DNA of 19,981 nucleotides from a virus (Duplodnaviria; Heunggongvirae; Uroviricota; Caudoviricetes), in IMG/VR virus record IMGVR_UViG_2671180422_000005; one strand, given 5' to 3'. Below are positions 1 to 18,700 of this stretch, piece by piece (position 1 is the stretch's first letter; every line of letters starts with the position of its first letter). Made by a program: the position numbers and the translations under genes. The notes beneath the pieces were generated by a model. The model saw only the letters and a list, made by a program, of their open reading frames with translations. It searched no databases and was not told the origin of the DNA.

Positions 1-1284
1 TTACAGACTTCTGGAAGGTTGCGCAGCTCTTACAACACGCGGTTGATCTTCCGCAGCGTCTTCCAGCGCACTTAAATCACGGTCTTTCACCTCTGGCATT
101 TTCAGCGCAGAGATTAAACCAATCACTGAATATGCCATGATCATAATGGCGATCGGATACCAGGATTCCGTCATGGTGCAGAAAATACCCGCCAGGATAG
201 GACCAAAACCGGAAGCGATAAGACCACCAATTTCTTTAGAAATAGCCATCCGGGTAAAGCGGTTTTTACAGCCGAACATTTCTGCCATGGTAATGTTTTC
301 CAGAGCAAATAATCCCAGCACCGCACAGTTATGAATCACAATCAGTGCAACCATAATGGTGCTCGGGGCATAGCTTTTATCTACAATGATAGAAAGCATT
401 GGCCATGCCAGCACAATCGCGGAGGTATTCATAATAATATACGGGATCCGGCGACCAATTTTATCGGATAACCAACCAAGGAACGGAATGGTCATAAAGC
501 CGAGAATCGAACTGATCATCAATGCATCTGTTGGAATTGCTTTGTTAAACAATAACGTCTGCACTAAATAGCCTGCAAGGAAAGTCTGAATTAACCCGGA
601 GTTACCCGCCTGACCAAAACGCAGCCCTGTTGCCAGCCAGAAGGATTTGCTCTGGAACATGCTACCAGCAGGTGCAGGTTTTGCTGTCGGTTGGTTACTG
701 TCGTTAACCTTCTCAAAGACCGGGCTTTCTTTCAGATTCATACGCAACCAGATAGCAAAGACCATCACGACAACACTCGCCAGGAACGGTATACGCCATC
801 CCCACGCCAGCAGTTCCTCTTTACTGAGAATGAAGAACATAAAGGCCCAGATTGCCGTTGCGCTCAAGGTTCCGCAGTTAGTTCCCATAGCCACAAATGA
901 GGAGATAATTCCGCGCTTACCTTTTGGCGCATATTCCGCCAGCATCGTACCGGCACCGGAAATTTCCGCACCTGCACCCAACCCCTGAATAATACGCAAC
1001 GTCACCAGCAAGATGGGTGCAAAAACACCAATCTGTGCATAGGTCGGTAACACACCAATTAAGGTGGTACAGATCCCCATCATGGTGATGGTAATAAAGA
1101 GCACTTTTTTACGCCCTATTCTGTCGCCCATTTTGCCGAAAATAAATGCTCCGACAATACGCGCCACATAACCTGCACCGTAGGTTCCCATTGCCAGAAT
1201 TAACGCCATTGCCGTTGATGATTCAGGAAAAAATATTTCATGAAACACTAACGCTGCGCCGAGCGAATATAACTGGAAATCCAT
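1..1284 (-). CDS. ydfJ: MFS transporter, metabolite:H+ symporter family (shikimate/ShiA-like), N-terminally truncated by prophage insertion
   Basis: 427-aa ORF with 12-TM MFS character; begins MDFQLYSLGAALVF, which corresponds to the end of TM1 in ShiA-like transporters, so about 25-30 N-terminal residues are missing; ATG at 1282-1284, TAA at 1-3. Confidence 0.85.
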   Translation of the reverse strand: MDFQLYSLGAALVFHEIFFPESSTAMALILAMGTYGAGYVARIVGAFIFGKMGDRIGRKKVLFITITMMGICTTLIGVLPTYAQIGVFAPILLVTLRIIQGLGAGAEISGAGTMLAEYAPKGKRGIISSFVAMGTNCGTLSATAIWAFMFFILSKEELLAWGWRIPFLASVVVMVFAIWLRMNLKESPVFEKVNDSNQPTAKPAPAGSMFQSKSFWLATGLRFGQAGNSGLIQTFLAGYLVQTLLFNKAIPTDALMISSILGFMTIPFLGWLSDKIGRRIPYIIMNTSAIVLAWPMLSIIVDKSYAPSTIMVALIVIHNCAVLGLFALENITMAEMFGCKNRFTRMAISKEIGGLIASGFGPILAGIFCTMTESWYPIAIMIMAYSVIGLISALKMPEVKDRDLSALEDAAEDQPRVVRAAQPSRSL

Positions 1285-2070
1285 AATTCACAGGTGTTTT
1301 TTCCCATCCTGTGGTTTCCTTGGCGTTTTCTAGGTTTTTTCAGATAGTTGCATTTTTTTAAAAAGCATCCTAAGTTCGATCTCAGTGTCTATCTGGGGCC
1401 TATTTCTGTCCCATATATGCCCCAAAAAAACTCCCCAACAGATAAGTAGTTTTTTCATGGATTTATGCGTAAAATCAAGAACGGCTGGAAATCATTCAAT
1501 ACTCACACTATCGAAAAATTTACCAGCCAATCGCAGCACGTTCTTGCATAAGGCGTGTCTGCGGTTTTTCAACTATTCAGATACATCACTCCCATCACAT
1601 TCATTCCTCCGCATCAAAGGCATATAGGCTATATCACCTTGATATTTTTCTTTTTCAGATAAAAACTGTTATCTATGTATACTTTTAAACCCAATCCGTG
1701 TAGAGTCTCTGCATAAGATAGTTTGCAGTTGCCGCTTCAGCTTGCGCCATAAACCGCCTGATTTTTGCTGCCACCTGTTAGCATTCCTGTATACCTGAAA
1801 CGACAATGTTTATCTACGAACTTTAAGAACACCCAAGATAAAAATTGTCAACTATATCATATATAACACATTACTAATTCGAGGCTATATGAACAGCATA
1901 CTGATAATCACATCTCTCCTTATCATATTCAGCATTTTTAGTCATGCCCTAATAAAATTAGGGATTGGCATATCCAATAACCCAGACAAAACCGATGTAT
2001 AAGTCAACATATCCTGAATCAGACATACAATATCGCAATGAAAATCAATAATATTTTAAGGAATATCTTC

Positions 2071-2304
2071 ATGAAATCAAAAGACACCCTAAAGTGGTTC
2101 CCTGCGCAGCTTCCTGAAGTAAGAATTATCCTAGGGGATGCTGTAGTGGAAGTAGCAAAACAGGGAAGACCTATCAATACCAGAACATTGCTTGATTACA
2201 TTGAAGGAAACATAAAGAAAAAATCATGGCTGGATAACAAAGAATTATTACAAACAGCGATATCAGTTCTTAAAGACAACCAAAATTTAAATGGTAAAAT
2301 GTAA
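2071..2304 (+). CDS. ydfK: YdfK/YnaE-family cold-shock-induced small protein (77 aa)
   Basis: ATG at 2071 preceded by AAGGAA 7 nt upstream; product MKSKDTLKWFPAQLPEVRIILGD... matches the YdfK/YnaE family as recalled; about 0.7 kb AT-rich non-coding leader upstream. Confidence 0.8.
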   Translation: MKSKDTLKWFPAQLPEVRIILGDAVVEVAKQGRPINTRTLLDYIEGNIKKKSWLDNKELLQTAISVLKDNQNLNGKM

Positions 2305-2620
2305 TATAATAAACTTACTTTTTTATCATTTTTCCACTTTAACAACATTTTGCTCCACTTTTCCACGACCAAACAACTTGAAATCTGGTTAAAATAACAC
2401 GCAACACTATTCTTCTTCCTTGAGTCCGCCCGGAACTCGAAAAACAAACCGAGTTAAAGCCATTTTTCACAAAATCGATTTTGGGTCTCACCAAAATTAC
2501 GGGGTTGCATACGCATTCGTTTATTTTCGAACGTGTACATACAAATATGCACAAAAATAATCATAATTATTTTCTGAGATGCATTATGATATGAACACCA
2601 ATTTCGTATAGAGTCTCACT

Positions 2621-3211
2621 ATGTCTCAAATTTTTGCTTACTGTCGGATATCAACGCTGGATCAGACCACCGAAAATCAACGCCGGGAAATCGAAAGTGC
2701 AGGTTTTAAAATCAAACCTCAGCAAATAATCGAAGAACACATTAGCGGCTCAGCAGCAACCAGTGAGCGTCCTGGTTTTAACCGGTTGCTTGCTCGCCTG
2801 AAATGTGGTGATCAATTGATTGTGACAAAACTGGATCGCCTTGGTTGTAATGCAATGGATATCAGGAAAACAGTGGAACAACTGACCGAAACAGGTATCA
2901 GAGTGCATTGCTTAGCATTGGGGGGCATTGACCTGACCAGTCCAACAGGAAAAATGATGATGCAAGTAATTTCAGCAGTCGCTGAATTTGAACGAGACCT
3001 TTTACTTGAACGCACTCATTCCGGGATAGTAAGAGCCCGCGGCGCAGGGAAACGTTTTGGTCGACCACCTGTGTTAAATGAAGAACAGAAACAGGCGGTA
3101 TTCGAACGAATTAAGTCAGGTGTAAGTATAAGTGCCATTGCCCGGGAATTCAAAACCTCGCGGCAAACCATTTTAAGAGCCAAAGCAAAACTTCAGACAC
3201 CTGACATATAA
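2621..3211 (+). CDS. pinQ: Serine recombinase, DNA invertase of the Pin/Gin/Hin/Cin family
   Basis: 196 aa; N-terminal catalytic motif YCRISTLDQ (active-site Ser10), C-terminal HTH ([18 protein letters not shown]); sequence as recalled for PinQ/PinR. Confidence 0.9.
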
Positions 3212-3308
3212 AAAATAATCTCGGTGTGAGATGCTTTACGTCTTCCAAGCCCCCTTCCTTGCCGTAAATGGAAAGATACATCTAATTATAGAATTTATAT
3301 GTTTTACC

Positions 3309-3444
3309 CTACGGCAGTGCTGGCCATTCAATATCCTGTGCAGTTGACGTATCAACACGGTTCAGCAATACCCGATACTTTTTCCATGCTTCCAGCAACG
3401 AGATTTCTTCCTCCGTTGCAATTTCCAGATCTGCAGCATCCTGA
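3309..3444 (-). pseudogene. 3' remnant (about 45 codons) of a tail fiber assembly gene tfa, fused to gene A
   Basis: Minus-strand frame reads ...[43 protein letters not shown]-stop, the conserved C-terminus of lambdoid Tfa proteins; no upstream Tfa sequence remains. Confidence 0.55.
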
Positions 3445-5337
3445 ATCTGCCAGTGTTTTCTTGTTGGTTGCTGCACCATCCTCTTCCTGCAGGCTCGCCA
3501 GCAGTGCACTGAGATCCAGCTGCCAGCGGGAAATACTGATGCGCAGCGCCGCCAGCGCATAAACGAAGCAGTCGAGTGCCTCATTGCGTCGCTTTTTGCT
3601 GTCCCACAGTATTTTTTTCCTGCCATCCACCCATTTTTCGACCTGCTCTTCAGCAGTCAGCTGCTGCGCTTCGGTCAGATCAAAAATATCCGGGTTATTC
3701 GGGAAGTGAACGGCACCGGGAAGCGGTTCATCCCCTTCCGGCGTCAGTGTGAAGCGGTTATAAATCTGCTCTTTCGCGGTATCCGTACCGATTTCGGTAA
3801 GGTAAACCCCGTTTTTGTTTCGCTTACGTGGCATGCTGGCCACCGGCTTTCCGTAGACGGATGCCCCTTTAATGGGGATCACCCGGAACAGCCCATGTTT
3901 TTTCGAGCGTTCATACACAATGGTCGGGTCAATCCCGCCAGTATCCCAGCAGATACGGGATACCGACATTTCTGCACCATTCCGGCGGGTATAGGTTTTA
4001 TTGATGGCCTCATCCACACGCAGCAGCGTCTGTTCATCGTCGTGGCGACCCATAATAATCTGCCGGTCAATCAGCCAGCTTTCCTCACCCGGCCCCCATC
4101 CCCATACGCGCATTTCGTAGCGGTCCAGCTGGGAGTCGATACCGGCGGTCAGGTAAGCCACACGGTCAGGAACGGGCGCTGAATAATGCTCTTTCCGCTC
4201 CGCCATCACCTCAGCATCCGGACGTTCGCCGATTTTCGCTTCCCATGTCTCACCGAGCGTGGTGTTTACGAAGGTTTTACGTTTTCCCGTATCCCCTTTC
4301 GTTTTCATCCAGTCTTTGACAATCTGCACCCAGGTGGTGAACGGGCTGTACGCCGTCCAGATGTGAAAGGTCACGCTGTCCGGCGGCTCAATCTCTTCAC
4401 CGGATGACGAAAACCAGAGAATGCCATCACGGGTCCAGATCCCGGTCTTTTCGCAGATATAACGGGCATCAGTGAAGTCCAGCTCCTGCTGGCGGATGAC
4501 GCAGGCATTATGCTCGCAGAGATAAAACACGCTGGAGGGGTCATCCGGCGTCCATTTGAGGCCAAACGGCGTCTCTTTGTCGCCAAATTTAAGATACTGC
4601 TCCTCCCCGCAGTGCGGGCAGGCAACATGAAAACGCATAAAATGCAGGGATTCACTGGCTGCACGCTCAATCTGGCAGGTGCCTCTCACTTTGGGCGTGG
4701 AGCCACGGATGGACTTTGGCCAGACCGAGCCTTCAATACGTTTGTCGCCAAGGAACGTCGGAGAGCCTTCCTGTTCAATATCCTCATCAAAGGCAGCAAG
4801 TTCATCATAACCCGCCACATCCACCGACTTTTCACGGTAGTTTTTTGCCGCTTTACCGCCCAGGCACCAGAAGCCACGACCATTGGAAAAACGCTTCATA
4901 GTGAGCGTGTTATCCCGGTGCTTTTTGCCATACCACGGAGCCAGCGCCAGCAGCGACGGAATATCGCGGATGGTCGGCTCAACGTGGGTTTTCATAAAGT
5001 TCTCGGCATCACCATCCGTCGGCAACCAGATAAGGGTGTTGCGCTGCTTATGCTCTATAAAGTAGGCATAAACACCCAGCAGCATTTTGGAATAACCGAC
5101 ACGGGCAGACTTCACCACATTCACCTCACGGATGTAGTCGCTGCCCATCGCATTCATGATGGCCCGCTGAAAGGGCAGTGTTTCCCAGCGCCCTTCCTGG
5201 TATGCGGATTCTTTCGGGAGATAGTAATTAGCATCCGCCCATTCAACGGCGGTCTGTGGCTCCGGCCTGAACAGTGAGCGAAGCCCGGCGCGGACAAAAT
5301 GCCGCAGCCTGTTAACCTGACTGTTCGATATATTCAC
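3352..5337 (-). CDS. A: Terminase large subunit gpA-like, 661 aa, with the last about 10 lambda residues replaced by 30 unrelated residues
   Basis: Collinear with lambda gpA from [19 protein letters not shown] through ...[11 protein letters not shown]; diverges after coordinate 3445 into ...[30 protein letters not shown], which is tfa-derived DNA read in another frame. Confidence 0.9.
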
Positions 5338-5857
5338 TCAGCAACCCCGGTATCAGTTCATCCAGCGCGGCTGCTTTGTTCATGGCTTTGATGATATCCC
5401 GTTTCAGGAAATCAACATGTCGGTTTTCCAGTTCCGGAAAACGCCGCTGCACCGACAGGGGGATCCCGTCGAGAATACTGGCAATTTCACCTGCGATCCG
5501 CGACAGCACGAAAGTACAGAATGCGGTTTCCACCACTTCAGCGGAGTCTCTGGCATTTTTCAGCTCCTGTGCGTCGGCCTGCGCACGCGTAAGTCGATGG
5601 CGTTCGTACTCAATAGTCCCTGGCTGGAGATCTGTCTCGCTGGCCTGCCGCAGTTCTTCAACTTCCCGGCGCAGCTTTTCGTTCTCAATTTCAGCATCCC
5701 TTTCGGCATACCATCTTATAACGGCGGCAGAGTCATAAAGCACCTCATTACCCTTGCCACCGCCTCGCAGAACGGGCATTCCCTGTTCCTGCCAGTTCTG
5801 AATGGTACGGATACTCGCACCGAAAATGTCAGCCAGCTGCTTTTTGTTGACTTCCAT
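5312..5857 (-). CDS. nu1: Terminase small subunit Nu1 (181 aa)
   Basis: MEVNKKQLADIFGASIRTIQNWQEQGMPV... matches lambda Nu1 as recalled; 3' end overlaps the A start as in lambda; ATG at 5855-5857. Confidence 0.9.
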   Translation of the reverse strand: MEVNKKQLADIFGASIRTIQNWQEQGMPVLRGGGKGNEVLYDSAAVIRWYAERDAEIENEKLRREVEELRQASETDLQPGTIEYERHRLTRAQADAQELKNARDSAEVVETAFCTFVLSRIAGEIASILDGIPLSVQRRFPELENRHVDFLKRDIIKAMNKAAALDELIPGLLSEYIEQSG

Positions 5858-6034
5858 TGTTCATTCCACGGCCAAAAACAGAGAAAGGAAACGACAGAGG
5901 CCCAAAAGCTCGTTTTCAGCACCTGTCGTTTCCTTTCTTTTCAGGGGGTATTTTAAATAAAAACATTAAGTTACGACGAAGAAGAACGGAAATGCCTTAA
6001 ACCGGAAAATTTTCATAAATAGCGAAAACCCGCG
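5858..6034 (-). promoter_or_regulatory. cosB-like terminase binding region between cosN and the nu1 start
   Basis: Reverse complement reads CGCGGGTTTTCGCTATTTATGAAAATTTTCCGGTTTAAGGC...GAAAGGAAACGACAGGTGCTGAAA..., near-identical to the lambda left-end cosB region (R3-I1-R2-R1) as recalled. Confidence 0.7.
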
Positions 6035-6046
6035 AGGTCGCCGCCC
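6035..6046 (-). other. cosN, the 12-nt lambda cohesive-end sequence
   Basis: Plus strand AGGTCGCCGCCC is the reverse complement of GGGCGGCGACCT; flanked by CGTAACCTGTCGG, reverse complement of the lambda right end ...CCGACAGGTTACG. Confidence 0.85.
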
Positions 6047-6245
6047 CGTAACCTGTCGGATCGCCGGAAAGGACCCGCAAAATGATAATAATTATCATCT
6101 GCATGTCACAACGTGCATCTACGCCATCAAACCACGTCAAATAATCAATTATGACGCAGGTATCATATTAATTGATCTGCATCAACTTAACGTAAAAACA
6201 ACTTCAGACAATACAAATCAGCGACACTGAATACGGGGCAACCTC

Positions 6246-6479
6246 ATGTCAACGAAGAACAGAACCCGCAGAACAACAACCCGCAACATCCGCTTTCCTA
6301 ACCAAATGATTGAACAAATTAACATCGCTCTTGAGCAAAAAGGGTCCGGGAATTTCTCAGCCTGGGTCATTGAAGCCTGCCGCCGGAGACTGTGCTCAGA
6401 AAAAAGAGTTTCTTCTGAAGCAAACAAAGAAAAGAGTGACATTACTGAATTGCTCAGAAAACAGGTCAGACCAGATTGA
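6246..6479 (+). CDS. ynfO: Small ribbon-helix-helix (Arc/CopG-like) protein with basic N-terminal tail, YnfO/YlcI (DUF3950)-like
   Basis: 77 aa; RHH signature NIRFPNQMIEQINIALEQKGSGNFSAWVIEACRRRL (beta strand, helix, Gly turn, helix); ATG at 6246. Confidence 0.7.
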   Translation: MSTKNRTRRTTTRNIRFPNQMIEQINIALEQKGSGNFSAWVIEACRRRLCSEKRVSSEANKEKSDITELLRKQVRPD

Positions 6480-6536
6480 AGCAATTTAGATAATCGTGCA
6501 GACTACGCCCCCTCATATCACATGGAAGGTTTATCT

Positions 6537-6947
6537 ATGGATCAGGTAGTCATTTTTAAACAAATATTTGATAAAGTTCGAAACGATTTAAACTATCAAT
6601 GGTTTTATTCTGAGCTAAAACGTCACAATGTCTCACATTACATTTACTATTTAGCCACAGAGAATGTTCATATTGTATTAAAAAATGATAATACAGTGTT
6701 ATTAAAGGGCCTAAAAAACATTGTGTCTGTCAAATTTTCAAAGGATAGGCATCTTATAGAAACGACCTCTAATAAGCTGAAATCCAGAGAGATCACATTT
6801 CAGGAATACAGAAGAAACCTTGCTAAAGCAGGAGTTTTTCGGTGGGTTACAAATATCCACGAACAAAAAAGATATTACTATACCTTTGATAATTCATTAC
6901 TATTTACTGAAAGCATCCAGAAAACTACACAGATCTTACCACGCTAA
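6537..6947 (+). CDS. ydfO: DUF1398-family protein (YdfO/YbcV-like), 136 aa
   Basis: ORF 6522-6947; second ATG at 6537 has GGAAGG 8 nt upstream; 42 nt downstream of the RHH gene on the same strand. Confidence 0.75.
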
Positions 6948-7051
6948 ACCATAACGTCCGGCTTCTCTCACTCCTGAGCCGGACTGCATTGGTTTAATAA
7001 AAACCATCAACAATTGTGATTTAGATATTCGGAACCATTCAAATATAACAA

Positions 7052-7072
7052 AACCCCGTAAAAACGAGGTTT
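7052..7072 (-). terminator. Intrinsic terminator downstream of gnsB
   Basis: Minus-strand RNA AACCUCGU-UUUU-ACGGGGUU (8-bp stem with one G-U pair) followed by UUGUUAUAUUU. Confidence 0.5.
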
Positions 7073-7098
7073 ATGGATAAATTTTATTATTGAATACA

Positions 7099-7275
7099 TC
7101 AGATTAAATTAATCTTGACATCATAGCTTTCAAGACCCGTCATTTTTTCCCGTGCGGTAAACTGAATACTGGTAACTTCTTTCCCGGTCTTTTTCTTAAG
7201 TTCAATAATTTTTTTTGTTATATATTCAGAAATATCTGCTTCTGCTTTTGTTTTTAAGTTTTCAATATTCATCAT
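7099..7275 (-). CDS. gnsB: GnsA/GnsB-family small protein (58 aa)
   Basis: Below the ORF-track cutoff; hand translation MMNIENLKTKAEADISEYITKKIIELKKKTGKEVTSIQFTAREKMTGLESYDVKINLI; AAAAGAGGAA Shine-Dalgarno immediately upstream of the ATG at 7273-7275. Confidence 0.75.
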   Translation of the reverse strand: MMNIENLKTKAEADISEYITKKIIELKKKTGKEVTSIQFTAREKMTGLESYDVKINLI

Positions 7276-7443
7276 TTCCTCTTTTAGTCTGTTATGACTT
7301 TCCAGTTACACAGTAAGTCGATTATATGGTGCAAACGTGTAAAAGATAAGATGAAACATCGCAATAATCAACATACGATAGTCTAAATTTTACACAAACA
7401 GACAAAGAGAATTTTCCTGAATTATCAATGCAATAGCATCAAA

Positions 7444-7674
7444 TCAACTCAAGAGCCTTATTGCTGCTTCCAGAATTTCTTCTGAAGTAACATGTCGATC
7501 CGCGGCTACATAAATGACTTTATGATCTCCGGTCAGAGATGGAAACCCTGCGGCCATTACAGTAAGGTGTGTTTTTTCGCCATTTGGATATTCACGCATG
7601 ATGGTGTTAACTCCAGTCATCGCTGGCACTACCACTGCTGGTTCAGAGTTAAAAAAAACTATGATTTTTTTCAT
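7444..7674 (-). CDS. Hypothetical 76-aa protein between cspI and gnsB
   Basis: ORF-track frame 7444-7716 opens with TTG; the first ATG gives MKKIIVFFNSEPAVVVPAMTGVNTIMREYPNGEKTHL...; weak Shine-Dalgarno; sits where K-12 Qin has ynfN and the paralogous chromosomal locus has ymcE. Confidence 0.45.
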   Translation of the reverse strand: MKKIIVFFNSEPAVVVPAMTGVNTIMREYPNGEKTHLTVMAAGFPSLTGDHKVIYVAADRHVTSEEILEAAIRLLS

Positions 7675-7710
7675 GATGTTACCGTAGTATGTGAGTATCC
7701 ATCGAATAGA

Positions 7711-7738
7711 CACCAAGCAAAAAAGCTCCCGAAGGAGC
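7711..7738 (-). terminator. Candidate intrinsic terminator downstream of cspI
   Basis: Minus-strand GCUCC-UUCG-GGAGC hairpin followed by UUUUUUGCUUGG. Confidence 0.45.
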
Positions 7739-7945
7739 CTTCATTTTCACTTTTTTAAATCCAACGACAGACGGCTGGCATTTAAGTATTGTGAAATATT
7801 ATCAAATGTAATCATCATTGATTTACAAAAGATACATTTTGCCCCGAAAGGATTCATGTCAGAAACATCAAAAGATGATGTTCTATACTGGGAACCATGA
7901 CAACACGGGCATCTAAAGTGAATATGGTTTGTAATATTGTCTACC

Positions 7946-8158
7946 TCAAAGCGCCACTACATGAACAGCGGCAGGACCTTTAGGTCCGTTCTCAATACCA
8001 AATTCAACTTCCTGATTCTCAGTTAATGTTTTGAAATCGTTGCTCTGAATTGCTGAGAAATGGACAAACACATCTTTGCTGCCATCTTTCGGCGTGATGA
8101 AACCAAAACCTTTTTCAGGGTTAAACCATTTCACTAAACCAGTCATTTTGTTAGACAT
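7946..8158 (-). CDS. cspI: Cold shock protein CspI (CspA family, 70 aa)
   Basis: [53 protein letters not shown]... with RNP1/RNP2 motifs; long leader upstream typical of csp genes. Confidence 0.95.
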
Positions 8159-8520
8159 AATTATTACCTTTTGAAGAAATTAGCCCTTGGGCAGAATGGT
8201 CCGAAAAAAAATATCAGAGAGAAAAACCAACAAGGAAATCTCAAGAGGTACAAATAATAAAATTATAACAATGACTGCTTCAGATAAATTTGTAACAAAC
8301 CAGAACACCATTAACGCATGATTAACCACCCATAGCAAGGATTACTTTTGTAAAGAAAAACACAGCAATGAAAGAATAGCTTTATTTATTAATAAAACGT
8401 GTCATTCTGATTAAGACCTTTTATCTTACCCTTAAGATTTCAGGAATTTTGGCTCATGGAAGAGTCCTTTTTATTTAAATTTTACATTCCGCGATGTAAA
8501 TGTTCCGATTTAATATTACC

Positions 8521-9544
<1,024 letters not shown>

Positions 9545-9548
<4 letters not shown>

Positions 9549-9856
9549 AGATATTTATGATGAGGACGCTCGTGCTTATTGGCAGGATTTTCAATCTTAA
9601 AGGAGTACTGATGCTGCAGATAAGACTCAACTTTTTCTGACAATTTTTCTGCTACTTCCAGGAAGACTTGCCGGACGCTCCTTCTGGCTGCTGCCTCATA
9701 AAACTCCAGCGCAGCTCCTTCAACACGGTCCATGGCGACATCCAGGTCAAAAATTTCACCGTCAAAGCGTTCTTTGTCCTGTAAGGCTACAGTTACCGTA
9801 ACTTTATTCTCAAAATTACGGACTCCTTTCACAACCAGTTCATAGTCTTGAGTCAT
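9545..9856 (-). CDS. ydfR: DUF1327-family protein encoded between holin and endolysin
   Basis: 103-aa ORF MTQDYELVVKGVRNFENKVTV...; tightly packed between essQ stop (9861) and the endolysin start. Confidence 0.8.
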
Positions 9857-9860
9857 TGGA

Positions 9861-10076
9861 TTACTCTCCTCTCGCAGCCTTACGCCTGTCTTCTTTAATC
9901 TTGAAATAAAGATTTGTCAGATACGTCAGCAGGCCAAAAACCAGGCTACCCAGCACACCGATTGCAGCCCACTGTGACGGAGTTACTTTATCGAGTAACT
10001 GCAATGCCCAGAAACCAGCATTACCCGCCGATGTGCCATAGGCAACACCTGTTGTTAACTTATCCATTGATTTCAT
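9861..10076 (-). CDS. essQ: Holin with dual-start motif (71 aa from first Met)
   Basis: [28 protein letters not shown]... with two in-frame Met codons (10074-10076 and 10065-10067) separated by Lys-Ser; GGGGTGAGGA Shine-Dalgarno; charged C-terminal tail. Confidence 0.9.
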
Positions 10077-10295
10077 ATCCTCACCCCGATGTACACGGAT
10101 GGTGCAATATGTTTGAAAAGATCGGAGTCTACGGGGTAGTTTTGACAGCACACGTTGTTCTCAACGGCGCTAAAAAAACATACACATTAAAAATGTGGGT
10201 AATTATTTTGAAAGAAAGTCATATATAAAATAATAATACGAGAAATGTTTTCATATTTAGTGTACTGTATACGGCCATTTATACAGGAAAAGCCT

Positions 10296-10466
10296 ATGTC
10301 AGAACGTAAAAACTCAAAATCACGCCGTAATTATCTCGTTAAATGTTCCTGCCCAAACTGCACCCAAGAGTCAGAACACAGTTTTTCAAGAGTACAAAAA
10401 GGTGCCCTTTTGATCTGCCCTCATTGCAACAAAGTATTCCAGACAAATCTTAAAGCTGTAGCCTGA
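10296..10466 (+). CDS. ynfU: Small zinc-ribbon protein (56 aa), YnfU-like
   Basis: MSERKNSKSRRNYLVKCSCPNCTQESEHSFSRVQKGALLICPHCNKVFQTNLKAVA; two CxxC pairs; AGGAAA 5 nt upstream of the ATG; opposite strand to the surrounding late genes. Confidence 0.65.
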   Translation: MSERKNSKSRRNYLVKCSCPNCTQESEHSFSRVQKGALLICPHCNKVFQTNLKAVA

Positions 10467-10520
10467 TTGATTTTATTAGTAACAAGTATTTTTTATATTT
10501 TAATAATATATTTAAAGCAG

Positions 10521-10548
10521 ATAATAAAAAACCCGCCTGAGCGGGTTT
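10521..10548 (-). terminator. Intrinsic terminator between cspB and the lysis cassette (bidirectional hairpin)
   Basis: Plus strand AAAAAACCCGC-CTGA-GCGGGTTT; on the minus strand the stem is followed by UUUUUUAUUAU. Confidence 0.6.
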
Positions 10549-10829
10549 GAGATTGTGGTGCTTTTTGTGGGAGTCATCCACTTACGCACTTTGTTTTGCC
10601 ATGCCAGCAGTTAGCTTCTGCTGTAAAACTATTCATGCAGCAAACCTGCACTTCACCACAATGGTTAGCATACTTTTCCTGATTAAGATTTTGCCAAATA
10701 TGCTAGCCATTGTTTCATGTATTGGACCTCCTTACTTTTTATTAAAGAGATCCAATATTCACTACTCTGTCCGTATCTCTACTCAGGCATCAGCCTTCTT
10801 CGTTATCGTATACAGACGAGCGATGAATT

Positions 10830-11045
10830 TTAATCAGTAATGATGACATTTGCTGCTGCAGGACCTTTAGCACCACTCTCTATAGAGAAGGTAACCTTTT
10901 GACCTTCAAATAAGGTTCGATAATTATCATTCTGAATCGCAGAAAAATGCACAAACACATCTTTACTACCATCAACAGGAGAAATAAAGCCGAAACCTTT
11001 ATCAGCGTTAAACCATTTTACTAAACCAGTCATTTTATTTGACAT
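10830..11045 (-). CDS. cspB: Cold shock protein CspB (CspA family, 71 aa)
   Basis: [53 protein letters not shown]...; AAGGAA Shine-Dalgarno. Confidence 0.95.
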
Positions 11046-11345
11046 TCTACATTCCTTAACTTGAGCCTTTCGGCATAAATGGTTTGCATAACAGAAACGA
11101 CTTCGTACTTAATTGGAGAGACTCAAAGAAGGAATAAGTGAATAACACCTGAAATGAGAACTGCTTTAGTAAACTACTTCGTATATCGTCTGTTCTTCAA
11201 ACCGACGCAATCATTAACGCATAGTTGAACATATGAAGCAATGTTTATTTTAGACATCCAGCCATCTTCAACCCCATCAAAAAACTATAGCTTTCTTCAG
11301 GAACGTGTGTATAGTGCGCCAAGTTATCAGTATTAAGGAATTTTT

Positions 11346-11558
11346 TTGTCCCGTAAAATGACAGGAATTGTCAAAACCTTTGACGGCAAAAGCGGCAAGG
11401 GTCTTATCACCCCATCCGATGGTCGTATCGATGTCCAGCTTCATGTTTCAGCGCTCAATCTCCGCGATGCAGAAGAAATTACCACCGGATTACGCGTGGA
11501 ATTTTGCCGGATAAATGGTCTGCGTGGCCCTTCAGCTGCCAATGTTTACCTTTCATGA
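11346..11558 (+). CDS. cspF: CspA-family paralog CspF (70 aa), divergent from cspB
   Basis: [45 protein letters not shown]...; the frame opens with TTG at 11346. Confidence 0.85.
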
Positions 11559-11612
11559 GCTATATTAAAGCTTTAATTTCAGGCCCCATCGGATCACACA
11601 TGGAGAGTTTTT

Positions 11613-11702
11613 ATGAATAACCCCGTCTGTCTTGATGACTGGTTGATTGGCTTTAAAAGCTTATGCTGTACTTTGGCCGTAATAGCTCTGCTAATAATAT
11701 AA
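11613..11702 (+). CDS. Candidate 29-aa hydrophobic peptide ORF (unannotated)
   Basis: GGAGAG 5 nt upstream of ATG at 11613; hand translation [29 protein letters not shown] then TAA; not in the ORF track because of its length. Confidence 0.25.
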
Positions 11703-11844
11703 TAAGCAGACTCATTGTGTTTAGGGACATTGTACTGGAAGAAAACATTTTAAACATCAGGCAAATAACCAAGTCACCAGCTAAATAATAAGTTAACAGA
11801 CATGAGTCCCGGGATGAGATTCAACATTACCATTGCCCCATTTA

Positions 11845-11872
11845 AAGCACAAAACCCGCTCATCAGCGGGTT
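11845..11872 (-). terminator. tR'-like intrinsic terminator downstream of the Q gene
   Basis: Hairpin AACCCGCT-CATC-AGCGGGTT at 11853-11872; on the minus strand followed by UUUUGUGCUUUAAA. Confidence 0.55.
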
Positions 11873-11919
11873 TTCTACTTTTTCTTAACGTCGGGTATAC
11901 AAAGCCCATCGTTGAAAAA

Positions 11920-11948
11920 ATTTTATCCATATTTTTTGAAAAATGCAA
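11920..11948 (-). promoter_or_regulatory. Candidate PR'-like late promoter
   Basis: Minus strand reads TTGCAT, 17-nt spacer, TAAAAT (plus-strand complement at 11943-11948 and 11920-11925), about 40 nt upstream of the tR'-like hairpin. Confidence 0.4.
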
Positions 11949-11979
11949 ACATCATGTCGCCATCTTCAGCAAAAATCAT

Positions 11980-12732
11980 TTATCTCGTCACCTTCCTCAA
12001 TTGCGCTTCCGCGTATGCTTCTTCCTGCCAGCACTTTGTTACCAGTTTACCAATGACGTCCGCATACCCCTTATACCACTGATAATCGGTCAGGTCTGGT
12101 ACCAGCTTCTGGACATGACGTCGTGCCAGCGTGGTCGGTAAACGACTAAACCGGTTTCCATTACAACGCCCACAAATCTTATATACCGGTACGCCATGAA
12201 ACCGGGTTCTTTTTTCATCCAGAACAATCCCTTTACCCTTACACCCTCTGCACGCTGTGCTGGCTTCGCCCTTACCATGGCAATGCTGACATAGTTCCTT
12301 CACCCATTCTTCCTTGATTACAGATTCCCCGCGTCTGTAGTGTTTCACCACTTCGCGCAATACATTATAAAATCCCGTACCTGAACAATGCTCACAGCGA
12401 GCCTTACTTGCCGCAGACCTGGAGTAATCAGCAAAGGCAAAACTCACGAGGTAAGGAATAATCTGTAACCGGATTTCTTCACTCAATTTGTTCAATGTCG
12501 GGTTATCCAGTGCCATCGCGTAATTTAGCAGGCCTTCAATCGCAAACTGAGGGTCCTGAACACCAACTTTTGCCAGAAATAAGGCCAACCCAAGTGGTGC
12601 TTTCGACTGCACCATCCCCTGCGCTGCCATTACATCCGTAATTGTTAAACAACCGGTGCCTGTCGCTGGAGCGTCATCGCTCAATTTTGGAGATTTTGGG
12701 GAGTAATATTTTGGTAAGGCTTCAAGGTTCAT
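11980..12732 (-). CDS. quuQ: Late-gene antiterminator Q (250 aa)
   Basis: ATG at 12730-12732 (MNLEALPKYYSPKSPKL...); four CxxCxGxG repeats (CEHCSGTG, CQHCHGKG, CRGCKGKG, CGRCNGNR); sits directly upstream of the PR'/tR'-like module and lysis genes. Confidence 0.9.
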   Translation of the reverse strand: MNLEALPKYYSPKSPKLSDDAPATGTGCLTITDVMAAQGMVQSKAPLGLALFLAKVGVQDPQFAIEGLLNYAMALDNPTLNKLSEEIRLQIIPYLVSFAFADYSRSAASKARCEHCSGTGFYNVLREVVKHYRRGESVIKEEWVKELCQHCHGKGEASTACRGCKGKGIVLDEKRTRFHGVPVYKICGRCNGNRFSRLPTTLARRHVQKLVPDLTDYQWYKGYADVIGKLVTKCWQEEAYAEAQLRKVTR

Positions 12733-12745
12733 GCTCGTTCTCCAC

Positions 12746-13486
12746 TTACGCCAGTACGCCAATTGTCAGCGCGCGATCGATAAAACGAAATATCAGCTCC
12801 AGTTGGGAGCCATACTTATCTTCAAATGCCACTGTATCCGTATGCAGCTCGTTGTGATGCTTTCTGCACAAAGGCAACACAAAGAGATCATGTGCTTTTG
12901 TTCCCATTCCGCCCTGCCCGTGACCAATCAGATGATGCGGATCGTCGGCTGGCATACCGCAGCAAGCACACGGCTGTGTCTTAACCCAACGTGTGTATTT
13001 CTCCTTAACCCAGCGGCGACGTTTAGGCAGCTTCATGAAAGATTCCGGAGACTCTGGATCAACGGTGATGCTTACCACCGTCTTTTCCTGTGGTGATTTT
13101 TGTTGCTGGTGGGCGTAAGGCAACGGTGCAAGATTTTTTGTGCGTTGTTTCAATATGCTGGTGGCGGTCTGCTCTCCCGGTACGATGTCGCTTTCGCGGT
13201 ACACCGAGCAGATTTTTTCCGCTGGTAATCCCAGCGAACGACGCGATACAGCCTCAGGTAGTGCATCCACCACCTGATTGCAGACCGCCCACCAGGATAA
13301 TTCAGCCAAAGATAATTCCCGCTCCTGCGTACCGCTTATTGCGTGACGGATGACGTCAATCACCCATGCTGTCAGATTTTGTTGAGCAAGCAGCTCCAGT
13401 GATTCCGATGTCTGGTCACGCAGTTGGTTGTCGCAGTGCCAGCACAACACCATTGCGCCGGTATTCATCATAAACTTTGGGATCAT
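12746..13486 (-). CDS. ydfU: DUF968-family protein with HNH-like Cys/His motif
   Basis: 246-aa ORF; C-terminal CACCG...DPHHLIGHG...LPLCRKHHNELH; ATG at 13486 has GGGGAG upstream but lies 71 nt inside dicC; shorter than the K-12 YdfU length I recall. Confidence 0.75.
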   Translation of the reverse strand: MIPKFMMNTGAMVLCWHCDNQLRDQTSESLELLAQQNLTAWVIDVIRHAISGTQERELSLAELSWWAVCNQVVDALPEAVSRRSLGLPAEKICSVYRESDIVPGEQTATSILKQRTKNLAPLPYAHQQQKSPQEKTVVSITVDPESPESFMKLPKRRRWVKEKYTRWVKTQPCACCGMPADDPHHLIGHGQGGMGTKAHDLFVLPLCRKHHNELHTDTVAFEDKYGSQLELIFRFIDRALTIGVLA

Positions 13487-13643
13487 ACTGAAGCTCCCCG
13501 CCAGATGCCTCCTGTAGACGCATCGCGCGACCTTCGGGAACTAAATCCCCTTTCCAGCTATAAAGCGAAGCCAAACGAATACCTGCTGCTTGTGCAAGTT
13601 TTGTTTTTGAACCGAAATACAAAAGAGCGTCAGTTTTAAGCAT
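13416..13643 (-). CDS. dicC: Cro-like HTH regulator DicC (75 aa)
   Basis: MLKTDALLYFGSKTKLAQAAGIRLASLYSWKGDLVPEG... (HTH); divergent from dicA across an 83-bp operator region. Confidence 0.85.
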   Translation of the reverse strand: MLKTDALLYFGSKTKLAQAAGIRLASLYSWKGDLVPEGRAMRLQEASGGELQYDPKVYDEYRRNGVVLALRQPTA

Positions 13644-13657
13644 TTAAAACACCTTTA

Positions 13658-13677
13658 TTGTTAGTCATAACTAACAA
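13658..13677. promoter_or_regulatory. Operator-like perfect palindrome in the dicC-dicA intergenic region
   Basis: TTGTTAGT-CATA-ACTAACAA (8-bp arms); a second dyad TTAGC-ATTA-GCTAA at 13711-13724 overlaps the dicA ribosome-binding region. Confidence 0.5.
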
Positions 13678-13726
13678 GATAGATGTTAACAAAAACATAG
13701 TCAATACGATTTAGCATTAGCTAACT

Positions 13727-14134
13727 ATGGAAACAAAAAATTTAACTATCGGCGAACGCATCAGGTATCGTCGGAAAAACCTCAAACACACCCAAAGGTC
13801 TCTTGCTAAAGCCCTGAAAATCTCCCATGTGTCTGTATCACAATGGGAACGGGGTGATAGTGAACCTACAGGGAAGAACCTTTTTGCCCTCAGCAAAGTA
13901 TTGCAATGCTCACCAACATGGATTCTATTTGGCGATGAAGACAAGCAACCAACACCACCTGTTGAGAAGCCAGTTGCCTTATCCCCCAAAGAACTAGAGC
14001 TCCTTGAGCTGTTTAATGCACTGCCAGAATCAGAACAGGATACCCAGCTCGCCGAAATGCGAGCTCGAGTAAAAAACTTCAATAAACTCTTTGAAGAATT
14101 ACTAAAAGCCCGTCAGCGGACAAATAAAAGATAA
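13727..14134 (+). CDS. dicA: Repressor DicA (HTH, cI/C2-like; 135 aa)
   Basis: METKNLTIGERIRYRRKNLKHTQRSLAKALKISHVSVSQWERGDSEP... matches DicA as recalled. Confidence 0.95.
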   Translation: METKNLTIGERIRYRRKNLKHTQRSLAKALKISHVSVSQWERGDSEPTGKNLFALSKVLQCSPTWILFGDEDKQPTPPVEKPVALSPKELELLELFNALPESEQDTQLAEMRARVKNFNKLFEELLKARQRTNKR

Positions 14135-14194
14135 CATCATCAATGAGTTATCTTTTACCACATCAATTATGTTAGCTATAGCATACAAAATCAC

Positions 14195-14223
14195 TTGACC
14201 GATATGTTAGTCATGGCTAATCT
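14195..14223 (+). promoter_or_regulatory. Candidate dicB-operon promoter (PL analogue) with embedded operator
   Basis: TTGACC (14195-14200), 17-nt spacer, TAATCT (14218-14223); the spacer contains ATGTTAGTCAT, repeating the TGTTAGTCAT core of the dicA-dicC palindrome. Confidence 0.45.
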
Positions 14224-14300
14224 TGTTTGCATCAACACACCGCACGGTGTTCTCAGCAAACAGTTCCGCTACCCCAGCGTTAAGGGGAAATGAGGTCAGC

Positions 14301-14456
14301 ATGGATACTATCGATCTTGGCAACAACGAATCTCTGGTGTACGGCGTGTTTCCAAACCAGGACGGCACGTTCACCGCAATGACGTATACCAAAAGCAAAA
14401 CGTTTAAAACCGAAAATGGTGCCCGTCGCTGGCTGGAAAGAAACTCAGGTGAGTGA
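14301..14456 (+). CDS. ydfA: YdfA (DUF1391) small protein, 51 aa
   Basis: ATG at 14301, MDTIDLGNNESLVYGVFPNQDGTFTAMTYTKSKTFKTENGARRWLERNSGE; first gene after the candidate promoter. Confidence 0.8.
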   Translation: MDTIDLGNNESLVYGVFPNQDGTFTAMTYTKSKTFKTENGARRWLERNSGE

Positions 14457-14457
14457 T

Positions 14458-14586
14458 ATGGATTTCGACACAATCATGGAAAAGGCTTACGAAGAATACT
14501 TCGAAGGCCTTGCCGAAGGCGAAGAAGCTCTCAGCTTCAGTGAGTTTAAACAGGCGCTTTCCAGTTCGGCAAAATCTAACGGCTGA
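14458..14586 (+). CDS. ydfB: YdfB small protein, 42 aa
   Basis: ATG at 14458, one nt after the ydfA stop; hand translation MDFDTIMEKAYEEYFEGLAEGEEALSFSEFKQALSSSAKSNG; a different frame from the ORF-track entry 14453-14662. Confidence 0.7.
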   Translation: MDFDTIMEKAYEEYFEGLAEGEEALSFSEFKQALSSSAKSNG

Positions 14587-14615
14587 TAAGCGAAACAGCA
14601 CCGCGAGGAATCAGT

Positions 14616-14834
14616 ATGCAGAAACGAGAACCCGTCATCATCGCGCCAGACTATACCGATGATGAACTTTATGAGTGGATGCGCCAGAAAATTAATGCAG
14701 CGCAGGATCTGAAATGGGCTAATGAAGCCAGGGCTAAGCAGGCTGAAAATCTGTCCGCTCTGGAGCAGGATATCACCAATCTGGAAAAAGCAGCGGCATT
14801 AAGCATTGCCAGAATGATTACATACCCGCGTTAG
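14616..14834 (+). CDS. ydfC: YdfC, 72 aa
   Basis: MQKREPVIIAPDYTDDELYEWMRQKINAAQDLKWANEARAKQAENLSALEQDITNLEK... Confidence 0.85.
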   Translation: MQKREPVIIAPDYTDDELYEWMRQKINAAQDLKWANEARAKQAENLSALEQDITNLEKAAALSIARMITYPR

Positions 14835-15174
14835 TAGCTAATCAACAAAGCTAAGGTTAGTAATTAAGGAGTTCTCCACGGGTGAGGTGGAGTGCGTGCG
14901 CCGGACACGGGTGCGCATCCGGAACTGACAGTTTACTGAAAGGATATTTCCCTGAAAAGTCAGACCATAACGCGAAAGCGCACGGCGAGGTAGCTGGTTC
15001 ATAGATAGCCTGTCGTTAAATTTTCGTCGACCGTGCGCTTCCGGTTGTGGCAACCCGCGAAATGGCGCGGCGGTAAGTATGGCGGGGTTATTCCTTCCCC
15101 GTTGAGGACACCGGGTTGTCAGGTTGACCATACGCTTAAGTGACAACCCCGCTGCAACGCCCTCTGTTATCAAT

Positions 15175-15232
15175 TTTCTGGTGACGTTTGGCGGTATCAG
15201 TTTTACTCCGTGACTGCTCTGCCGCCCTTTTT
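15175..15232 (+). ncRNA. dicF: DicF small RNA (Hfq-dependent inhibitor of ftsZ translation), processed from the dicB-operon transcript
   Basis: TTTCTGGTGACGTTTGGCGGTATCAGTTTTACTCCGTGACTGCTCTGCCGCCCTTTTT matches the DicF sequence as recalled; ends in a GGCGG/CCGCC stem plus U5 terminator; mature 5' end is uncertain by a few nt. Confidence 0.8.
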
Positions 15233-15401
15233 AAAGTGAATTTTGTGATGTGGTGAATGCGGCTGAGCGCACGCGGAACAGTTAAAACCAAAAACAGTGT
15301 TATGGGTGGATTCTCTGTATCCGGCGTTAATTGTTAACTAGTTAACGTCACCTGGAGGCACCAGGCACTGCATCACAAAATTCATTGTTGAGGACGCGAT
15401 A

Positions 15402-15778: not shown

Positions 15779-15870
15779 AACAGTTCCGTAATAAATATCC
15801 GGTTTCATTCTTATATGCCAGCAATGGCAGGGATTTGTTCATCCTTAAATCTGTCATGAGGTTAAAACAA

Positions 15871-18342: not shown

Positions 18343-18414
18343 TGTTCAACTGTCGCCGGTTGTGACTGGTATTCTGCAACCGGCGCTCGTCTGATGTAAG
18401 AGATAAAGAAATCG

Positions 18415-18666: not shown

Positions 18667-18700
18667 CTAAAAGCCACACTAACTAATGAGAGAAGTTGAA

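Follow-up and report, generated by a model that had tools for sequence, protein, structure and literature searches.

A lambda-like cos site and terminase remnant, probably left by a recent deletion, in a Qin-family cryptic prophage of Escherichia coli

Why would a prophage stripped of its structural genes keep a cos site together with the terminase genes that act on it? The question is raised by a 19,981-nt stretch of DNA, the IMG/VR virus record IMGVR_UViG_2671180422_000005 (Caudoviricetes), which we analysed whole and refer to as the window; positions are those of the window unless stated otherwise. A first-pass annotation, made from the sequence alone, proposed that the element keeps a functional cos-cutting module, and could be packaged in trans by a lambda-type helper phage or break the chromosome at cos. 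We put a probability of roughly 80% on a plainer reading, namely that the window is occupied by a lambdoid cryptic prophage of the Qin family in ydfJ, recently truncated and decaying, in which cos, nu1 and A were left by the chance position of a deletion endpoint. The cos and terminase remnant is a commonplace relic of a lambda-like virus, in a prophage family that is well known, rather than a novel mobile or DNA-cutting system. Our statements on the function of this allele are all drawn by analogy with lambda.

A Qin-family prophage and its two deletions

The element lies between ydfJ and int, at the locus that runs from ydfJ to rspB. By blastn, the window resolved into three blocks (1-3445, 3780-13463 and 13459-19981) of the ydfJ-rspB prophage of WP2-S18-ESBL-08, at 99.97-100% identity. 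Genes annotated in that prophage include ydfK, pinQ, tfaQ, nohA, ynfO, ydfO, gnsB, cspI, rzpQ, rrrQ, essD, cspB, ydfT, ydfU, dicC, dicA, dicB and int, and the equivalent site of K-12 is annotated as 'cryptic prophage Qin'. Membership of the Qin family is indicated by insertion in ydfJ next to rspB and by blocks collinear with both the annotated locus and K-12; the gene order compared was pinQ ... nohA, ynfO, ydfO, gnsB, cspI, rzpQ, rrrQ, essQ, cspB, ydfT, ydfU ... dicC, dicA, dicF, dicB ... int, with DicF matched by Rfam. K-12 Qin shares the chromosomal site (ydfJ to rspB) and the gene order, and its cos-nu1 region is 99.1% identical, but there nohA is fused to stfQ, A is missing, and int and ydfE are pseudogenes. 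The window allele, unlike K-12 Qin, retains A residues 1-631, int, xis and an exonuclease (int and xis being open and full length), and it lacks stfQ, most of tfaQ, relBE, hokD, rem and flxA. The deposited phage PhiR42_1 (recorded host E. coli ECOR13) is 100% identical to the window across 4475 to 6500, cos and nu1 included; we found no paper on PhiR42_1 or the PV3405xx phage series, including how PhiR42_1 was obtained. Both PhiR42_1 and a prophage of E. coli W carry a full morphogenetic gene set, whereas the window allele carries none.

The first deletion runs from codon 632 of A to the end of tfaQ, with 2 bp of microhomology, and its junction lies at 3444/3445. What is left of tfaQ, a tail-fibre assembly gene, is a 137-bp 3' remnant (3309-3445, minus strand), recognised by blastn against the loci of relatives and by a C-terminal match to Caudo_TAP. 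At the same locus, E. coli W encodes a 641-aa A followed by W, portal, protease, decoration, capsid, FI and tail genes, and the homology of the window to E. coli W ends 32 nt before the end of that strain's A. Read against these relatives, one deletion removed all head and tail genes. The absence of structural genes noted in the first-pass annotation was confirmed, the 137 bp of tfaQ alone being left. Head and tail families were likewise absent from the RefSeq annotation of the collinear locus, the Pfam annotation of identical contigs and a PHROGs scan, bar a dubious label on ydfO. We rejected ydfO as a 'head protein' (its PHROGs match), since the label comes from lambda orf p78 and the Pfam family is DUF1398; the gene is also encoded on the other strand, in the interval that separates cos from the lysis genes.

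Several comparisons suggest that this deletion is young. Over A residues 1-631 the protein is identical to those of E. coli W and PhiR42_1, with 4 synonymous differences in 3,057 nt, and there were 0 differences from WP2-S18 over 2,721 nt. Deletion endpoints also differ between strains: in K-12 nohA is joined to stfQ with no A, in WP2-S18 A is cut after 1,557 nt, and in MIN11 the endpoint truncates nohA itself. To say that the element 'keeps' a functional module implies selected retention, and these observations argue instead for a recent deletion whose endpoint fell by chance near the end of A, other strains having other endpoints. An illegitimate deletion endpoint would have spared cos, nu1 and 98% of A, with too little time since then for mutations to accumulate. 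Nothing we saw suggests that cos, nu1 or A are needed by the element or by the cell; cos and nu1 do persist in many Qin and DLP12 copies that decayed independently, for which weak selection, rather than chance, could account. An assembly artefact or an engineered junction was considered and rejected, as the exact fusion protein and 15.3 kb of identical context recur in independent NCBI, ENA and Logan assemblies.

The second deletion, of 10.4 kb, removed the replication region and toxin-antitoxin genes and left a dicC'::'ydfU junction at 13459-13463 (no strand assigned; blastn against the WP2-S18-ESBL-08 locus), which is also present in strain MIN11. The iterons of the WP2-S18-ESBL-08 locus (its positions 26926-27056) and the adjacent replication genes fall inside the stretch deleted from the window, and by this alignment the replication origin and initiator region is lost from the element. 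With morphogenetic genes and replication module both absent, the element is not a complete lambdoid prophage.

The cos site and the terminase genes

The order of the cos and terminase module is that of lambda (cosQ, cosN, I2, R3, I1, R2, R1, nu1, A, with A overlapping nu1 by 26 nt), and alignment to NC_001416 on the minus strand bore out the description of cosN and the adjoining terminase-binding region as almost base-for-base lambda. The packaging-termination subsite cosQ (GGGTCCT; 6070-6076, minus strand) corresponds to lambda 48473-48479 and is identical; the changes that flank it, at lambda 48471 and 48486, are common to deposited phages, and no indel separates cosQ from cosN, so that the lambda spacing is kept. 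From lambda bp 48487 through bp 53, which takes in cosN and the I2 spacer, the window is identical to lambda. This covers the nicking site cosN (~22 bp; 6030-6051, minus strand), with its 12-nt cohesive-end segment GGGCGGCGACCT at 6035-6046, and I2 (lambda bp 18-50; 5997-6029, minus strand), which joins cosN to cosB and whose role as a spacer has been described (PMC4856287). The absence of indels in I2 means that the distance from cosN to R3 is preserved. A 35-nt lambda sequence spanning cosN had a single exact match in the window, at 6022-6056, and 0 matches in 200 shuffles.

Within cosB (5882-5994) the differences from lambda comprise one change in R3, G54A, and five in the spacers, whereas cosQ, cosN and I2 are identical. 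Of the three R sites, R3 and R1 are direct and R2 is inverted; the pattern CGTTTCCNTTCT, allowing up to 1 mismatch, matched at 5882, 5927 (plus strand) and 5983, against 0.41 matches expected. The R2 core (CGTTTCCTTTCT; 5927-5938, plus strand) and the R1 core (the same sequence; 5882-5893, minus strand) are exact matches, R2 being identical to lambda. The R3 core (CATTTCCGTTCT; 5983-5994, minus strand), a predicted Nu1 binding site, carries one change, G54A at window position 5993, inside the conserved CGTTTCC core. The substituted base is shared with PhiR42_1, with K-12 Qin and with the prophage of E. coli W, which is complete; in phages 2H10 and PhiR70_1 it is the adjacent base that varies. 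We found no mutational data for the G54A position; that both PhiR42_1 and the complete W prophage carry the change suggests that it is tolerated. The interval between R3 and R2 (5939-5982, minus strand), within which the IHF site I1 lies, has two changes, A73G and T102C, both common to several deposited phages. Between R2 and R1 the spacer has two substitutions and has lost 1 bp relative to NC_001416; the shorter length is found in 7/7 other deposited phages aligned. The window thus has the cosN 12-mer, the cosQ heptamer and a three-R cosB at an unchanged cosN-R3 distance, as a lambda-type cos should. Because the site is 100% identical to the cos of PhiR42_1 and the cosN-R3 spacing is unchanged, it looks like a competent terminase substrate, probably usable by terminases of lambda or Qin-type Nu1 specificity.

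The frames of nu1 and A are uninterrupted on the minus strand, as the first-pass annotation had it. The small-subunit gene nu1 (nohA; 5312-5857, minus strand) encodes a full-length protein of 181 aa by Pfam and alignment, with both the winged-helix DNA-binding domain at its N-terminus and the end that binds gpA at its C-terminus. It is identical to Nu1 of PhiR42_1 and matches lambda Nu1 at 178/181 residues, with three conservative changes (K48R, A75T, L132I); the Pfam family Phage_Nu1 (PF07471) was matched over its full profile (1-164/164, E 2e-101, 336.7 bits against a cut-off of 30), and the PHROGs family is phrog_57. The large subunit is one open frame of 661 aa, here A* (3352-5337, minus strand), of which residues 1-631 (3445-5337) are native; the tfaQ remnant, read out of frame (offset of 1 from tfaQ), supplies residues 632-661. 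The native part is identical to lambda A at 627/631 residues (4 substitutions) and holds a GpA_ATPase domain at 47-285 (172 bits) and a GpA_nuclease domain at 322-600 (251 bits), with the motifs KSARVGYS and GYDE in the translation. The native C-terminal 10 residues, YARALSGEDE, are gone, replaced by 30 unrelated, cysteine-rich residues, and A* thus lacks the last part of the C-terminal tail by which gpA binds the prohead (portal), a tail that packaging requires. To call A near-intact is accurate for residues 1-631 and both domains, but the missing tip is functionally important.

The closest tested analogue is Aam42, a gpA without its last 5 residues, which fails to dock to proheads but still nicks cos and forms Complex I (PMC4856287). 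Both proteins combine intact ATPase and nuclease domains with loss of the tip that binds the portal; A*, however, loses 10 residues rather than 5 and gains 30 foreign ones, a tail that could alter its folding or stability beyond what Aam42 predicts. Because both domains are whole, Nu1 and A* should, by this analogy, assemble an enzyme able to nick cos. Such an enzyme would bind cosB and nick cosN with no prohead docking, much as Aam42 does.

Expression, self-cutting and packaging in trans

A presumed late operon lies upstream of the module (upstream part 8521-12732, minus strand), as judged from the annotation of a 100% identical stretch of WP2-S18-ESBL-08. It contains, all on the minus strand, the Q-type antiterminator ydfT (11980-12732; Q-like in PHROGs), the holin gene essD (9861-10076), the lysozyme gene rrrQ (9015-9548; endolysin in PHROGs) and the spanin gene rzpQ (8521-9018; spanin in PHROGs), together with ydfR and interspersed cold-shock genes. 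We infer that transcription would read through cos into nu1-A. A promoter and terminator scan of 3000-14300 gave 17 promoter-like sites, no better than the 18.9 expected from shuffled sequence.

This arrangement raises the possibility that Q turns on the late operon and that Nu1 and A* then cut the chromosome at cos, the resulting double-strand break, specific to that site, serving a biological role such as suicide or the initiation of recombination. The order Q, lysis, cos, nu1, A is unbroken on one strand, the second deletion places Q ~0.9 kb from the dicC promoter region, and a Chi in the correct orientation lies 3 kb from the end that would be exposed; A* also keeps its Nu1-binding N-terminus along with the nuclease and ATPase domains, and an Aam42-type terminase has the nicking and Complex I activities noted above. 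Cleavage of cos by lambda terminase in vivo, however, needs assembled proheads and gpFI (PMC4856287), and both parts of that stated requirement are missing here. Expression would in any case lyse the cell, since holin, lysozyme and spanin share the transcript, and the promoter-like sites at chance level offer no help. Nor does A show a sign of selection, being absent or truncated in sister alleles. Overproduced lambda terminase reportedly (Murialdo, in 1988) kills recombination-deficient E. coli; if so, abundant terminase can cut chromosomal cos without proheads. On balance the element is unlikely to cut its own cos efficiently, and we consider a break with a biological role improbable. The first-pass claim of a functional cos-cutting module is partly supported: by sequence the cos looks competent and the terminase domains are whole, but the element encodes neither proheads nor gpFI.

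A terminase that nicks without docking might alternatively act as a decoy, with A* sequestering the cos or the Nu1 of superinfecting lambdoid phages and so interfering with their growth. A* is intact except for the portal-binding tip, and a helper of matching Q specificity might activate it in trans. Aam42, however, is recessive: co-infection with A+ phage increased the yield of the mutant some 2000-fold, with 21.5 A+ phage still produced per cell (PMC4856287). Replicating phage genomes would moreover outnumber the one chromosomal copy, and the allele is rare (8 contigs), which together make anti-phage interference extremely unlikely.

Alternatively, cos may have been kept so that a lambda-type helper packages and spreads the element, as with cosmids or cos-type phage-inducible chromosomal islands. 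In favour are an intact cos, the same as in a deposited phage, and the open, full-length int and xis, which make excision conceivable. With the element ends taken from the limits of the K-12 'cryptic prophage Qin' feature, its length of ~18.7 kb (39% of lambda) is approximate, and no convincing pair of att core repeats emerged from an exact 12-mer search and a repeat search for the element ends. A trimer would come to 116% of lambda length, and a dimer (37.5 kb, 77%) would lie near the lower packaging limit of lambda, which Feiss and colleagues reportedly placed at about 75-78%. With origin and initiator gone, however, no concatemers would form and no second cos would lie at a packageable distance; the cosN 12-mer had no second copy in the window or, in identical contigs, in the next 10 kb downstream as packaging would proceed. 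Cosmid packaging relies on concatemers from replication (PMC4856287), and terminases of the cos type require a further cos for packaging to be completed, uncut protruding DNA blocking the joining of tails (PMC6687093). Cosmids and cos-type islands are like the element in carrying cos on DNA without capsid genes, but they replicate to packageable multi-cos concatemers, whereas the Qin element lacks an origin, has a single cos and is probably of the wrong length; the replication of its own that marks a cos-type island is missing. Its Q, lysis and terminase genes point to phage ancestry rather than island architecture, and sister alleles have lost A or part of nu1. The repressor DicA is short (135 aa) and presumably without a RecA-cleavable domain, which also counts against a helper-dependent satellite. 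Given a single cos, the removal of the origin and a length so far below that of lambda, packaging by a helper is unlikely and the proposal that the element is packageable in trans is unsupported; by itself, with no proheads, gpFI, origin or second cos, the element could not be packaged as a unit. We accordingly see a very slight chance that cos is kept for helper-borne spread.

Distribution and recombination with lambdoid phages

The 799-bp cos-nu1 segment was present at a coverage of at least 80% in 3,914 of 5,426 complete E. coli genomes (72%), and A in 3,262 of the same 5,426. The A::tfaQ' junction was found in 0/5,426 complete genomes, the exact A* protein occurring on 8 contigs; a contig of GCA_043677115.1 is 100% identical to window positions 1-15337. 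Some Logan contigs have ends at 6035 and 6042, inside cosN. We discounted these as physical cos ends, breaks of the assembly graph at sequence common to other lambdoid prophages being more likely because other assemblies read straight through cosN.

A chance leftover of a recent deletion may still matter to other phages, and the cos-nu1 segment probably supplies DNA with which lambdoid phages can recombine, by analogy with the cos-nohD region of DLP12 (De Paepe et al. 2014, PMC3945230). DLP12 is likewise a defective lambdoid prophage with cos, a Nu1 homologue and lysis genes; its recombinants with infecting lambda have their junctions concentrated at cos, and lambda can use its nu1, R and Rz (PMC3945230). 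DLP12 and Qin are distinct prophages at separate loci, and the DLP12 experiments concern neither Qin cos nor the window allele. The terminase of a related lambdoid phage growing in the cell could cut the chromosomal cos. A cut would probably stimulate recombination between phage and prophage near cos, in which the phage may gain cos, nu1 and lysis alleles, and probably also to abortive one-ended packaging from nu1 towards pinQ and ydfJ, with no second cos found in the 10 kb downstream to terminate it.

A stronger version holds that, while a lambda or Qin-type phage grows, the chromosomal cos is an entry point from which the terminase of that helper packages the neighbouring chromosome in situ from one end (nu1, A, pinQ, ydfJ, dcp and onward), or the site of a programmed break that aborts the infection. 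If true, the former would be the cos-phage counterpart of lateral transduction, and either would give a 'dead' cos a role at the level of the population; we regard both as highly improbable.

On the preferred reading, a recent deletion that happened to spare cos, nu1 and most of A, the significance of the locus beyond bookkeeping is little. It is very common for an E. coli chromosome to carry a cos site with a working nu1 allele; such sites are a known source of recombination DNA for infecting phages (PMC3945230), and extra cut sites are to be expected wherever lambda terminase or lambdoid phages are used in natural isolates. The locus is a clearly dated example of lambdoid prophage decay by single large deletions, running from terminase to tail-fibre genes, in which 'intact' prophage modules can simply be young.

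Gene content of the prophage

Three blocks of the window are 99.97-100% identical to the ydfJ-rspB prophage of strain WP2-S18-ESBL-08, and the annotation of K-12 places the cryptic prophage Qin at the same location; the object is of a known kind, a Qin cryptic prophage allele. The window runs from the 3' end of truncated ydfJ to the integrase stop codon, so essentially the whole element lies inside it. The minus strand carries, in order, dicC', 'ydfU, the Q-type antiterminator ydfT, cspB, holin, ydfR, lysozyme, spanin, cspI, gnsB, cos, nu1, A* (a truncated terminase large subunit A fused to tfaQ read-through) and a tfaQ remnant, while pinQ, ydfK, ynfO, ydfO, dicA, DicF, dicB, an exonuclease, xis and int occupy the plus strand. 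The first-pass annotation was correct that structural genes are lacking: apart from 137 bp of tfaQ, no head or tail genes are left in the window. The sole PHROGs 'head protein' match (phrog_413), to ydfO (6537-6947, plus strand, just upstream of cos and on the opposite strand to it), looks unfounded, the label being inherited from lambda orf p78 and the Pfam family being DUF1398.

The Pin-type DNA invertase gene pinQ (2621-3211, plus strand) is intact, and its invertible tail-fibre segment is gone save for the tfaQ remnant; the pin-side endpoint fell within stf or tfa in every Qin deletion allele examined. This small element also has four cold-shock-family genes (ydfK, cspI, cspB and cspF), two cspA-type thermoregulator leaders for cspI/cspB identified by Rfam within the late region (7919-8304 and 10814-11206, both minus strand), and an Rfam-identified DicF small RNA (15176-15227, plus strand). 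The exonuclease (824 aa, 15871-18342), excisionase (18415-18666) and integrase (18701-19981) genes are open and full length, whereas ydfE and intQ are pseudogenes in K-12 Qin, making excision of the element conceivable.

The cos site and terminase genes

A 35-nt lambda sequence spanning cosN had a single exact match in the window (6022-6056) and 0 matches in 200 shuffles. Aligned with lambda NC_001416 joined end to end, window positions 5300-6700 (reverse complement) showed no difference between lambda bp 48487 and bp 53, a stretch that takes in cosN and the I2 spacer. The nicking site cosN (6030-6051, the 12-nt cohesive end being 6035-6046), I2 (5997-6029) and cosQ (GGGTCCT, 6070-6076; lambda 48473-48479) lie on the minus strand, as do nu1 and A, and are identical to lambda, bearing out the lambda-like cos site proposed within 5312-6110. 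Among the Nu1 binding sites of cosB, the R2 core (5927-5938, inverted) and R1 core (5882-5893, minus strand) are exact, and R3 (5983-5994, minus strand) has one change, G54A; the rest of cosB differs by A73G, T102C, G134A, T145G and an R2-R1 spacer 1 bp shorter.

Differences of the kind that might abolish terminase binding were absent from cosN, and the G54A and spacer changes in cosB also occur in deposited phages. In an alignment of lambda, K-12 Qin, the E. coli W prophage and seven deposited phages, G54A was common to PhiR42_1, K-12 Qin and E. coli W, the adjacent base varied in phages 2H10 and PhiR70_1, and the shorter spacer was found in all sequences but the lambda reference. Across cos, nu1 and the 5' part of A (4475-6500) the window matches Escherichia phage PhiR42_1 (PV340562) at 100% identity; this record is a complete genome of 48.7 kb that carries the full head-gene complement and names E. 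coli ECOR13 as host. The cosN-to-R3 distance, important for correct nicking (PMC4856287), is as in lambda. Given these shared features, the cos site looks competent by comparison with deposited phages. Two caveats attach to this view: literature searches found no paper on how PhiR42_1 was isolated, nor mutational data for cosB base 54.

The small-subunit gene nu1 (nohA; 5312-5857, minus strand) is intact as claimed, encoding 181 aa with a full-length Pfam Phage_Nu1 match and three changes from lambda (K48R, A75T, L132I). A* begins at 5337, giving the 26-nt overlap with nu1 also seen in lambda, and its frame is open to 3352 (minus strand, 661 aa). The description of A as near-intact holds for residues 1-631, which match E. 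coli W and PhiR42_1 exactly as protein (four synonymous base differences only) and retain complete ATPase and nuclease domains, but not for the C-terminal tip, part of the prohead-binding domain, where native YARALSGEDE is swapped for 30 unrelated residues read out-of-frame from tfaQ. At the same locus, E. coli W encodes an A of 641 aa, with genes for W, portal, protease, decoration, capsid, FI and tail downstream of it. Homology to this locus ends at 3444, 32 nt short of the A end, and homology to the tfaQ 3' end begins at 3445 (2-bp overlap at the junction); all morphogenetic genes were thus lost through one illegitimate deletion.

The lambda gpA mutant Aam42, without the last 5 residues only, keeps cos nicking and Complex I, loses portal docking and yields ~7e-3 per cell versus ~11 for wild type; the mutation is recessive (PMC4856287). 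With its domains complete and its tip lost, as in Aam42, A* is predicted to cut and not to package. Recessiveness of Aam42 disfavours a role for A* as a decoy terminase.

Cleavage and packaging

Nu1 and A* probably form an enzyme able to cut cos. Such an enzyme is plausible, but the proposed self-cutting is not supported: cos cleavage in vivo by lambda terminase requires assembled proheads and gpFI (PMC4856287), and the element has neither. Gene order alone suggests late-operon read-through into nu1-A, a promoter scan around the late operon performed no better than chance, and a late transcript with nu1-A would equally yield holin, lysozyme and spanin. In 1988 Murialdo reportedly found terminase overproduction to be lethal to recombination-deficient E. 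coli, so cos cutting at high terminase levels is possible. After a cos cut, the nu1 side would be shielded by Complex I and the cosQ side exposed to nucleases (PMC4856287). Four Chi octamers lie within the element, at 9123 and 17774 (CCACCAGC on the plus strand) and at 13105 and 13157 (GCTGGTGG on the plus strand); that at 9123 is 3 kb from cos and oriented to stop RecBCD entering on the cosQ side.

A second deletion (junction 13459-13463) fuses Cro-like dicC (dicC', 13416-13643) to ydfU ('ydfU, 12746-13486), with the loss of ~10.4 kb; WP2-S18 has, in this stretch, rem, hokD, relBE, flxA and a replication region with four 23-bp iterons. The complete genome MIN11 has the same junction, its terminase region having decayed otherwise. 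The deletion places the dicC promoter region ~0.9 kb upstream of the Q antiterminator.

Packaging in trans by a lambda-type helper, as first suggested, is unlikely. The element measures ~18.7 kb by K-12 prophage limits; relative to lambda length, a monomer is 39%, a dimer 77% and a trimer 116%, and the lower packaging limit is ~75-78%. Concatemers would not form since the replication region was lost with the second deletion, and cosmid packaging depends on replication-generated concatemers (PMC4856287). Terminal cutting by cos-type terminases needs a second cos, and uncut protruding DNA blocks tail attachment (PMC6687093); the window has only one cos, and on identical contigs the 10 kb that follow in the packaging direction contain no other.

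Population spread and likely role

The cos-nu1-A module shows zero sequence decay relative to complete relatives; a young rather than a retained module is favoured. Among the strains compared, the ydfJ prophage locus has at least four other states: complete (E. coli W), A reduced to its first 1,557 nt and fused to a tail-fibre gene (WP2-S18), a nohA::stfQ fusion with A absent (K-12) and nohA itself truncated (MIN11). The A::tfaQ' junction occurred in 0 of 5,426 complete E. coli genomes. It is a real natural allele, since 8 contigs from NCBI, ENA and Logan assemblies carry the exact 661-aa protein with the same surroundings, and one contig of GCA_043677115.1 matches window positions 1-15337 at 100% identity. 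The lambda-type cos-nu1 segment is commonplace in E. coli (3,914 of the 5,426 genomes at ≥80% coverage, median two places per genome), and A is present in 3,262. Two independent short-read assemblies, represented by the Logan contigs L011 and L012, break inside the cohesive-end segment of cosN (6035 and 6042), and three others continue across; a graph break at sequence common to other lambdoid prophages is the likely cause, physical cos ends in those samples a possible one.

The first observation is confirmed and its interpretation partly supported, with a cos site and nicking enzyme plausible and mobilisation and self-cutting not supported. Alone, the element would be inactive. A related lambdoid phage growing in the same cell would supply terminase, proheads and gpFI, whereupon the chromosomal cos could be cut, and abortive one-ended packaging would proceed towards pinQ and ydfJ. 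In the analogous cos region of DLP12, lambda recombinants cluster beside cos, and prophage nu1, R and Rz work in lambda (PMC3945230); similar recombination and allele donation would be expected here. The best-supported consequence is that the element may act as an allele source and recombination hotspot for lambdoid phages.
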